Sequence record: PP532814.1
Length of the DNA stretch: 51,775 nt
Direction: 5' to 3' (one strand)
Origin: Escherichia phage vB_EcoP_06
A program made the position numbers and the translations under genes. The notes under the pieces were generated by a model. That model was not told the origin of the DNA. It saw only the letters and a list, made by a program, of their open reading frames with translations, and did no database searches. This document shows, piece by piece, positions 45,542 to 45,675 of this stretch. Numbering within the stretch: position 1 is the stretch's first letter; every line of letters starts with the position of its first letter.

Positions 45542-45570
45542 TTGACAACGATTTCCTGATTGGTTAGCAT
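45542..45570 (+). promoter_or_regulatory. sigma70-like promoter (TTGACA-17-TAGCAT)
   Basis: Consensus -35 with 17-bp spacer and partial -10; followed about 65-100 nt downstream by a hairpin terminator. Confidence 0.4.
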
Positions 45571-45633
45571 ATTCAACGTTTACATAAGAGCGGCGTTAGT
45601 GCCGAACGGGTGGCGCGGTTGCCACGCAACAAC

Positions 45634-45675
45634 GGCGATATGCAGGTTTTTACCGGAAGACGTATCGCCTTTTTT
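45634..45675 (+). terminator. hairpin terminator or attenuator immediately upstream of 45688 gene
   Basis: Stem GGCGATA ... TATCGCC followed by TTTTTT. Confidence 0.45.

Follow-up and report, generated by a model that had tools for sequence, protein, structure and literature searches.

The element described here lies in a 146-nt intergenic gap of Escherichia phage vB_EcoP_06 (PP532814.1), from which a stretch of 51,775 nt, called hereafter the window, was analysed. The window is a T1-like phage, belonging to the Drexlerviridae and Hanrivervirus-like. By megablast, its positions 44800–46300 are about 95% identical to the Hanrivervirus phages slyngel, herni, SFP17 and pSf-1; Shigella phage SFP17 is classified as Drexlerviridae, Tempevirinae, Hanrivervirus. 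The gap is preceded by a gene encoding 76 aa and followed by a cassette of three small genes, g1 to g3, of which g2 and g3 are syntenic in relatives, and then by the packaging genes terS and terL. Of 16 neighbouring proteins scanned, only two have an assigned function, one being a nucleotide kinase and the other a polynucleotide kinase/phosphatase, both encoded further upstream. The features of the region are the following.

45311–45541: upstream gene, 76 aa (phrog_303)
45542–45547, + strand: -35 hexamer TTGACA, overlapping the stop codon of the upstream 76-aa gene
45556–45563, + strand: spacer motif CTGATTGG (family consensus CTGAnnGG), a possible regulator site
45565–45570, + strand: -10 hexamer TAGCAT, separated from the -35 by a 17-nt spacer
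45577–45590, + strand: predicted start of the RNA, with a conserved tail CGUUUACAUAAGAG that stays single-stranded in the MFE fold
45591–45604, + strand: hairpin P1 (CGGC, loop GUUAGU, GCCG)
45605–45609, + strand: linker AACGG, in which AACG is nearly invariant
45610–45614 and 45621–45625, + strand: hairpin P2 (GUGGC/GCCAC), loop GCGGUU, loop consensus RCGNWN
45626–45633, + strand: single-stranded linker GCAACAAC with two AAC repeats
45634–45669, + strand: hairpin P3, terminator stem GGCGATATG(C)/(G)ACGTATCGCC, -13.8 kcal/mol
45655–45660, + strand: conserved internal loop of P3, G(G/U)AAGA, being GGAAGA in the window
45670–45675, + strand: U6 tract, forming an intrinsic terminator together with P3; an RNA of about 99 nt is predicted to end here
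45678–45683, + strand: Shine-Dalgarno sequence AGGTGA (AGGUGA in the RNA) of g1
45688–45921, + strand: g1, first gene of the cassette, 77 aa, ATG at 45688
45878–46063, + strand: g2 (phrog_2919)
46060–46299, + strand: g3 (DUF7299, membrane helix)
46306–46329, + strand: strong intrinsic terminator closing the transcription unit (7 bp with 6 GC pairs, -13.3 kcal/mol)
46346–46351, + strand: TATAAT, -10 of the separate promoter of terS and the packaging genes
46380–46901: terS
46901–48469: terL

Promoter and predicted RNA

An original prediction, made from this one sequence, had proposed at the locus a TTGACA-17-TAGCAT promoter, hairpins GTGGC/GCCAC and GGCGATA/TATCGCC, and a T-run just ahead of the ribosome-binding site of the 45688 gene. 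All of these elements are present: the two hairpins are P2 and the outer part of P3, and the T6 tract is followed by AGGTGA. The third hairpin, P1, had been missed, and the prediction had no view of a family-wide 5' leader of which the window element is the local form.

The MFE fold of the 99 nt between 45577 and 45675 consists of exactly P1, P2 and P3, at -32.5 kcal/mol, and the opposite strand folds less stably (-27.6 kcal/mol). P3, with arms GGCGATATG ... CGTATCGCC, is made of an outer stem of 9–10 bp, a small apical hairpin and an internal loop. Together with U6 it makes up a predicted intrinsic terminator, a G+C-rich hairpin with a U-run directly behind it; a simple terminator scan does not report it, because its loop exceeds 8 nt. 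The U-tract ends 2 nt before the Shine-Dalgarno sequence and 12 nt before the g1 ATG.

The predicted promoter matches the sigma-70 consensus at 10 of 12 positions. Taken singly, neither promoter nor fold is above chance: 3 promoter-like sites were found in 2.2 kb, for 4.4 +/- 2.3 in shuffled sequences, and the z-score of the fold is only -1.38. The significance of the element therefore comes from the comparison with relatives. Among 62 distinct promoter sequences of relatives, 55 have TTGAC[N] as their -35 and the seven others TTGCAT; the two hexamers lie 17 nt apart in 50 of them and 18 nt apart in the other 12, and the -10 reads TA[G/A/T]NNT. The distance between the -10 and a conserved CGT is 6 nt in 59 of the 62, and the spacer motif CTGAnnGG is present in 57. 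Within it, TGATTGG is invariant in an alignment of eight relatives (alignment A1). Short direct repeats were also seen at the locus, TGATTG occurring twice. The fixed geometry of the promoter and its constant distance to CGT point to a transcription start at about 45576–45578. A promoter scan gave no further promoter-like site on the + strand between 45570 and the terminator at 46306.

The transcription unit headed by the RNA is short: besides the RNA it contains three small genes and a terminator, with a tRNA ahead of the genes in some clades. A strong terminator is found just 5' of terS in all clades, and within about 20 nt past it every clade has an extended -10 promoter, TGnTATAAT, TGGTAAAAT or TGGTACAAT (TATAAT in the window). 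The packaging genes thus have a promoter of their own, and form a separate unit.

Covariation of the hairpins

In the eight-relative alignment, the P2 stem GTGGC/GCCAC is replaced by GTGAC/GTCAC, GTAGC/GCTAC or GCCAG/CTGGC, and the terminator stem GGCGATA/TATCGCC by GGCGCTA/TAGCGCC or GCGCCGCG/CGCGGCG. Pairing was quantified in three further alignments. The first (A5) is a plain MAFFT alignment of P1 and P2 from 16 diverse phages, which was not fitted to the structure. In it 97.2% of cells are paired, compared to 17–57% when partners are slid by 1–3 columns, and eight of the nine pairs have changed on both sides. Its covariation score, 0.817, was reached in none of 500 shuffles (0.262 in shuffles). 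The second (A6) contains the same two hairpins in 78 matches, fitted to the model; 98.8% of its cells are paired (20–53% with slid partners), eight of the nine pairs have again changed on both sides, and double changes occupy 136 cells. The third (A7) contains P3 in 14 distinct sequences, with 97.2% of cells paired (27–56% with slid partners) and compensatory changes in eight of 13 pairs, six of them among the ten pairs of the outer stem. Considered separately, P1 has changes on both sides in all four of its pairs (94–98% of cells paired) and P2 in four of its five (100% of cells paired).

The compensatory changes in P1, P2 and P3 are those expected of a structured non-coding RNA. Conservation of the hairpins had been suggested as a check in the original prediction, its lack counting against the element; on the contrary, both hairpins named there, and the third one, are conserved with compensatory changes. 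G-U pairs are found in P2 and P3 (column pair 70–108 is U-G in ten sequences and C-G in four). Since these would be A-C mismatches on the other strand, and since the reverse complement folds less stably, the RNA is assigned to the + strand.

Conservation also extends to unpaired positions: C3, G4, T5, A8, C9, A12, G14 and A15 of the tail are invariant in alignment A5. The RNA as a whole is at most slightly better conserved than the flanking genes, so that an argument from an island of conservation is weak.

Distribution in T1-like phages and variation of the 3' end

A sensitive blastn search with positions 45500–45720 detected the intergenic region in 134 phage records, with identity falling to about 76% in Warwickvirus and Henuseptimavirus. 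A covariance model built from the eight-relative alignment (R1) found a single copy in the window (45571–45681, 121.9 bits) and likewise a single one in each related genome. Matches that were weaker, though still significant, came from the syntenic position in Salmonella phage PMBT35, TLS and Tunavirus Eco_BIFF. Relatives of terS are present in about 980 phage records; 80 loci anchored on such relatives, T1 included, were fetched from IMG/VR, and a second model (R2) was built on the 5' domain only, from the plain MAFFT alignment of 16 diverse sequences. With a regular expression and R2, the element was found in 78 of 93 sources, and four further loci of Braunvirinae and Webervirus matched with filters off. 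It is always present in a single copy, on the terS strand, about 750–850 nt upstream of terS. The phages in question belong to Tempevirinae, Tunavirinae (T1 included), Webervirus, Braunvirinae and Rogunavirinae, which are all five lineages sampled.

As a control for specificity, 678 kb of unrelated viral DNA chosen for the primary motif gave no model hit, and a scan for this motif in viral contigs outside the T1-like phages returned chance matches only. In scans with promoter and body patterns, strong model hits (>80 bits) were confined to contigs also recovered as T1-like. A few weak model hits, of 14–19 bits, were also seen in these pattern scans.

Two modules of the RNA are conserved across the family. 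The 5' module consists of the tail CGUnnAC..AAGAG, P1, AACG and P2 with its loop RCGNWN. The second is the last hairpin, which has a covarying stem and a loop ending in CCGUAA, followed by an 8-nt tail AMYMAUUC. P3 is homologous to this last hairpin of the other subfamilies. In several relatives the motif CCGUAA occurs 2–4 times per RNA.

What follows the second module differs among lineages. In TLS, PMBT35 and T1, the 8-nt tail leads directly into the Shine-Dalgarno sequence, with no U-run. In Rogunavirinae and Braunvirinae, the RNA is 190–250 nt long and is directly followed by a tRNA-Arg(UCU). The Webervirus leader measures just 68 nt, with AUUUAC or UUUUAUU after its second hairpin. In Hanrivervirus, Warwickvirus and Henuseptimavirus, the window included, the last hairpin is enlarged and retains the motif in the form of an internal loop, GUAAGA. 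Only in this clade does a U-run come behind the hairpin; it counts 4–8 residues and is weak (4 U) in some members. The AAC-repeat linker is largely kept in this terminator-bearing clade; T1 and TLS lack it. Two contigs have other arrangements: L123 has a U-run together with the old tail and looks intermediate, and in L142 the same 3' module is preceded by another 5' part.

Absence of the U-tract in T1, TLS and PMBT35 means that termination is not the conserved function of the hairpin. Comparison of the lineages indicates that the last hairpin is older than its terminator role and is conserved for more than termination, the latter being a lineage-specific addition to an older structured RNA. 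In Rogunavirinae and Braunvirinae, the tRNA placed between leader and cassette leads one to expect an RNase P cut of the leader. A leader released in this way would be easier to reconcile with an RNA acting in trans, or bound to polymerase, than with a translational leader working purely in cis.

Possible functions and related systems

The reading that we favour, with moderate confidence, takes the element for a conserved 5' leader RNA heading the three-gene cassette, in which the P3 terminator throttles the cassette and yields an RNA of about 99 nt. Host sigma-70 RNA polymerase would start at about 45577 from the promoter at 45542–45570, and the first 99 nt or so would fold into a 14-nt single-stranded tail, the short hairpins P1 and P2 and the long hairpin P3. 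P3 and U6 would then act as an intrinsic terminator 2 nt before the g1 ribosome-binding site. Most transcripts, whether from the leader promoter or reading in from upstream early genes, would end there as the short RNA, and the fraction reading through would alone yield the g1–g3 mRNA. The 12 nt from the U-tract to the ATG are too few to hold a further promoter, and the scan showed no second site on the + strand. Expression of g1–g3 therefore depends on read-through of P3, which gives an architectural ground for calling P3 an attenuator: by its layout, the terminator gates downstream genes that have no predicted promoter of their own. The original prediction of a short terminated transcript (sRNA) or of an attenuator, which was hedged, thus gains support from covariation, promoter conservation and the position of the terminator.

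Start and stop of transcription at the leader, partial termination and the binding of a factor are what we infer from this arrangement. The invariant unpaired nucleotides (5' tail, AACG, P2 loop and GUAAGA loop of P3) go beyond the needs of termination and suggest a bound factor: a protein or RNA polymerase may bind them and set the level of read-through, or use the short RNA. No conserved antiterminator pairing was found, the one alternative fold of the window, in which the 5' tail pairs with the 3' arm of P3, not being kept in relatives. Read-through, if regulated at all, would thus call for a factor and not for an RNA switch of the simple type.

Several other readings were weighed against a gated leader. 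That the locus is ordinary, a chance promoter with a plain terminator of the upstream genes, or an N-terminal extension of the 45688 gene, is hardly credible. Promoter-like matches are indeed common by chance, the SFP17 record annotates a CDS starting at a GTG inside P2, and the window has an in-frame ORF at 45610–45921. However, 62 distinct sequences retain the promoter, covariation extends to P1 and P2, which lie outside any terminator, and the element is also present in clades that have no terminator behind it. The coding explanation was rejected: relatives have indels of 1, 2, 17 and 19 nt, which break the frame and exclude coding despite the SFP17 annotation. It is very improbable, too, that a DNA site (a pac site, a replication origin or a cluster of operators) is what is conserved, the hairpins being incidental or acting as DNA. 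The position some 0.8 kb upstream of terS, the conserved spacer motif and the TGATTG repeats would suit such a site, but pairing is kept by compensatory changes, G-U pairs leave mismatches on the other strand, conservation is phased to the promoter at a fixed distance, and tRNA genes are inserted in the transcription unit of the leader in two subfamilies. A possible though unlikely reading is that the RNA of about 99 nt is itself a stand-alone trans-acting sRNA, which a canonical host promoter would supply early and in abundance; its 5' tail would pair with host mRNAs, or it would sequester a host or phage protein, gating of g1–g3 being a side effect. Its own promoter, its own terminator with U6, its length of about 100 nt, the invariant unpaired 5' tail and the AAC repeats before the terminator all agree with this. 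So do the poor conservation of g1 next to an RNA that is kept, the tRNA processing that would release the RNA in tRNA-bearing relatives, and the recurrence of CCGUAA within single RNAs. Against it, the RNA of T1, TLS and Webervirus has no terminator and continues into the mRNA as a 5' UTR, and the AAC-repeat linker is not family-wide. Moreover, an antisense scan of the 5' tail and the linker against the phage genome gave no outstanding target, the best non-self duplex reaching -14.8 kcal/mol, versus -17 to -21 kcal/mol for shuffled seeds.

The two-hairpin 5' module placed directly after a conserved promoter also recalls cis-acting antitermination signals such as lambda nut or the HK022 put RNA, the latter conferring resistance to terminators on RNA polymerase via the beta' zinc-binding domain. 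Tail, P1 and P2 would in that case carry polymerases from the leader promoter through P3 and past the 46306 terminator as far as the packaging genes, and read-in from the early genes would stop at P3. Terminators lie downstream in every clade, with an extra one right after the RNA in the clade of the window, and the late regions of T1-like phages are rich in terminators and have few canonical promoters by conservative prediction (PMC11447400). The put RNA remains on the polymerase without a tether, and such a mode of action would tolerate an intervening tRNA or terminator (PMC9378689). We nevertheless hold antitermination by the 5' module to be improbable. P1 and P2 have only 4–5 bp, when put consists of two long bulged stems in about 70 nt (PMC9378689), and model R2 finds nothing in HK022 (best score 6.5 bits, E 1.4). 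The leader is present once per genome, not twice. No antiterminator (N- or Q-like) or RNA-binding partner protein was recognised among the 16 neighbouring proteins scanned. Finally, terS has its own conserved extended -10 promoter past the terminator, so that read-through into the packaging genes is not required. In another version, which we regard as quite unlikely, the family-wide 5' module (tail, P1, AACG and P2) and the conserved CCGUAA hairpin would act directly on the transcription machinery or on a host protein. This might take the form of an RNA-based antiterminator in virulent phages, or of an immediate-early decoy against a host RNA-binding defence or nuclease.

Among the closest known arrangements is the late leader of lambdoid phages, with its PR' promoter, short '6S' transcript and tR' terminator, of which the StxS sRNA of Shiga-toxin phages is an instance. 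Like it, the window has a host-type promoter, a predicted transcript in the 100–200-nt class and an intrinsic terminator, on the same strand and shortly upstream of the packaging genes; the lambdoid case also illustrates that a short terminated RNA is a by-product that can be functional. The differences are several. No Q-like protein was recognised among the 16 neighbouring proteins, to which the protein scan extended. A Q/qut leader combines the antiterminator gene with a Q-binding element and a pause signal at the promoter; in the window, the conserved spacer motif CTGAnnGG is to be noted at the promoter. The leader hairpins covary, so that selection acts on the RNA structure and not on a DNA site alone. 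Three small genes make up the gated unit, terS has its own promoter, and most relatives have no terminator. Classical attenuators and riboswitch leaders share the order of promoter, leader, terminator and ribosome site, and here as well the terminator abuts the ribosome site of the gated genes. Unlike them, the leader has no leader peptide, no conserved antiterminator pairing and no match to an Rfam family.

Enterobacterial sRNAs of the Hfq type with a 5' seed are about 100 nt long, with an unpaired conserved 5' end and a terminator hairpin. The window RNA resembles them by these traits and by its AAC repeats and U6, but U6 and AAC-AAC are not family-wide, most relatives being without terminator, and no phage target was found. 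The stable RNAs C and D of T4 are co-transcribed with the phage tRNA cluster. A small structured RNA in one unit with a tRNA is likewise found in Rogunavirinae and Braunvirinae, in contrast to the window, which has no tRNA.

Database searches agree with a family that is not yet catalogued. In Rfam 15 the window has no match at the gathering threshold, the only hit of the region at E <= 10 being a chance one of 9.8 bits, and six related loci gave tRNA matches only. ARAGORN detects neither tRNA nor tmRNA in the window. An origin from the host or a prophage was rejected, there being no blastn match at E <= 1 in 5,426 complete E. coli genomes. An RNA anti-CRISPR was also rejected: local alignment to type I-E and I-F repeats scored at best 10, for a shuffle maximum of 11. 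The annotated records of related phages that were inspected carry no annotation of RNA, promoter or terminator at the element, and our search of the literature gave no description of the leader RNA and no transcription-start or transcript map for Drexlerviridae. The reannotation of TLS gives three sigma-70-like intergenic promoters, the leader promoter not being among them, and lists open questions about T1-like phages (PMC11447400). A paper on T1 goes no further than speculating that a small RNA or riboswitch may be encoded by this phage (PMC6737242). On the comparative evidence, the element constitutes a new RNA family, though its kind is familiar, that of promoter-proximal leaders or small RNAs provided with an intrinsic terminator; the mechanism proposed above for the leader is inferred from its architecture and conservation.

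At least one record, that of SFP17, puts a protein start inside the RNA, and its annotation is hereby corrected. T1 is a classic coliphage and a notorious laboratory contaminant. A structured RNA with a canonical host promoter, conserved across every T1-like subfamily sampled, offers a concrete and testable regulatory element at the boundary between early and packaging genes. If the RNA did act directly on the transcription machinery or on a host protein, terminator, tRNA and ribosome site would be interchangeable among lineages, and an RNA-based antiterminator would add one more case to that of HK022 put. With terminator, tRNA and ribosome site as alternative 3' ends, the lineages provide a natural experiment on cis versus trans action of the RNA.

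Gene start and 3' side of the leader RNA

In the annotation of Shigella phage SFP17, the first cassette gene (SFP17_055, L001:3738–4049; window equivalent 45610–45921) starts from a GTG inside hairpin P2 of the leader RNA and extends across the terminator. A likelier start than this GTG is the ATG at 45688, which is preceded by AGGTGA.

Braunvirinae and Rogunavirinae carry a tRNA-Arg(UCU) gene in the same transcription unit as the homologous RNA, 11 nt past that RNA's last hairpin (related loci L109:2081–2158 and L107:2097–2169; also L134, L136, L153 and L160). Some contigs appear to have other or additional tRNAs. 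In an IMG/VR relative (L142:1790–1960), the 3' module (GCCGG AUUCCGUAA CCGGC and the tail) is kept behind an unrelated 5' part, so the RNA's 5' and 3' modules are separable.

Surrounding signals, early proteins and related records

Every subfamily has a terminator immediately ahead of terS (ACCCGCC..GGCGGGT and a T-run) and, within ~20 nt after it, a promoter of the extended -10 type (window 46306–46351; equivalent position in L002, L006, L110, L147, L111, L109 and L107). This pair looks like a conserved insulator-and-restart unit. Another terminator-like hairpin, with a long loop (GCCTC ... GAGGC, then ATTTTTT), is found at 45124–45166, after a 103-aa gene and 420 nt upstream of the leader RNA element; the simple terminator scan missed it, as it did P3.

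The following lie upstream, the two kinase-like proteins being encoded in the early region:

40797–41348, polynucleotide kinase/phosphatase-like protein (PF25109, phrog_415), an enzyme of RNA/DNA end-repair type
42254–42856, deoxynucleoside monophosphate kinase-like protein
42885–43328, 148-aa ORF with an arginine-rich stretch at the C-terminus (RARYDARRMRRLARNAIKFKK)

The 148-aa ORF matched no PHROG or Pfam family; its arginine-rich stretch shows an apparent resemblance to the arginine-rich motifs with which lambdoid N proteins bind RNA.

The T1-like region of the window is also present, at 92–94% identity (up to 99% for terS), in some 20 unannotated GenBank records titled "Campylobacter phage" (MG0656xx), which are likely coliphage contamination or mislabelling.

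The 21-base intergenic repeat

The role of the 21-base intergenic repeat of phage TLS is described as an open question (PMC11447400). Its 19-nt core, ATAGCACTTTTTGTTAAAA, was found at 24 sites in the window with at most 3 mismatches, versus 3 expected, and 14 of these copies were perfect. Example sites (≤3 mismatches) are:

44199–44217, +, repeat core
42856–42874, +, repeat core
38951–38969, +, repeat core
36854–36872, -, repeat core
4834–4852, -, repeat core

In T1-type relatives, a -10-like TAAAAT upstream of terS is directly adjoined or overlapped by the repeat (TGGTAAAATAGCAC...), and the repeat may therefore be a unit composed of a promoter -10 plus a 5'-UTR.
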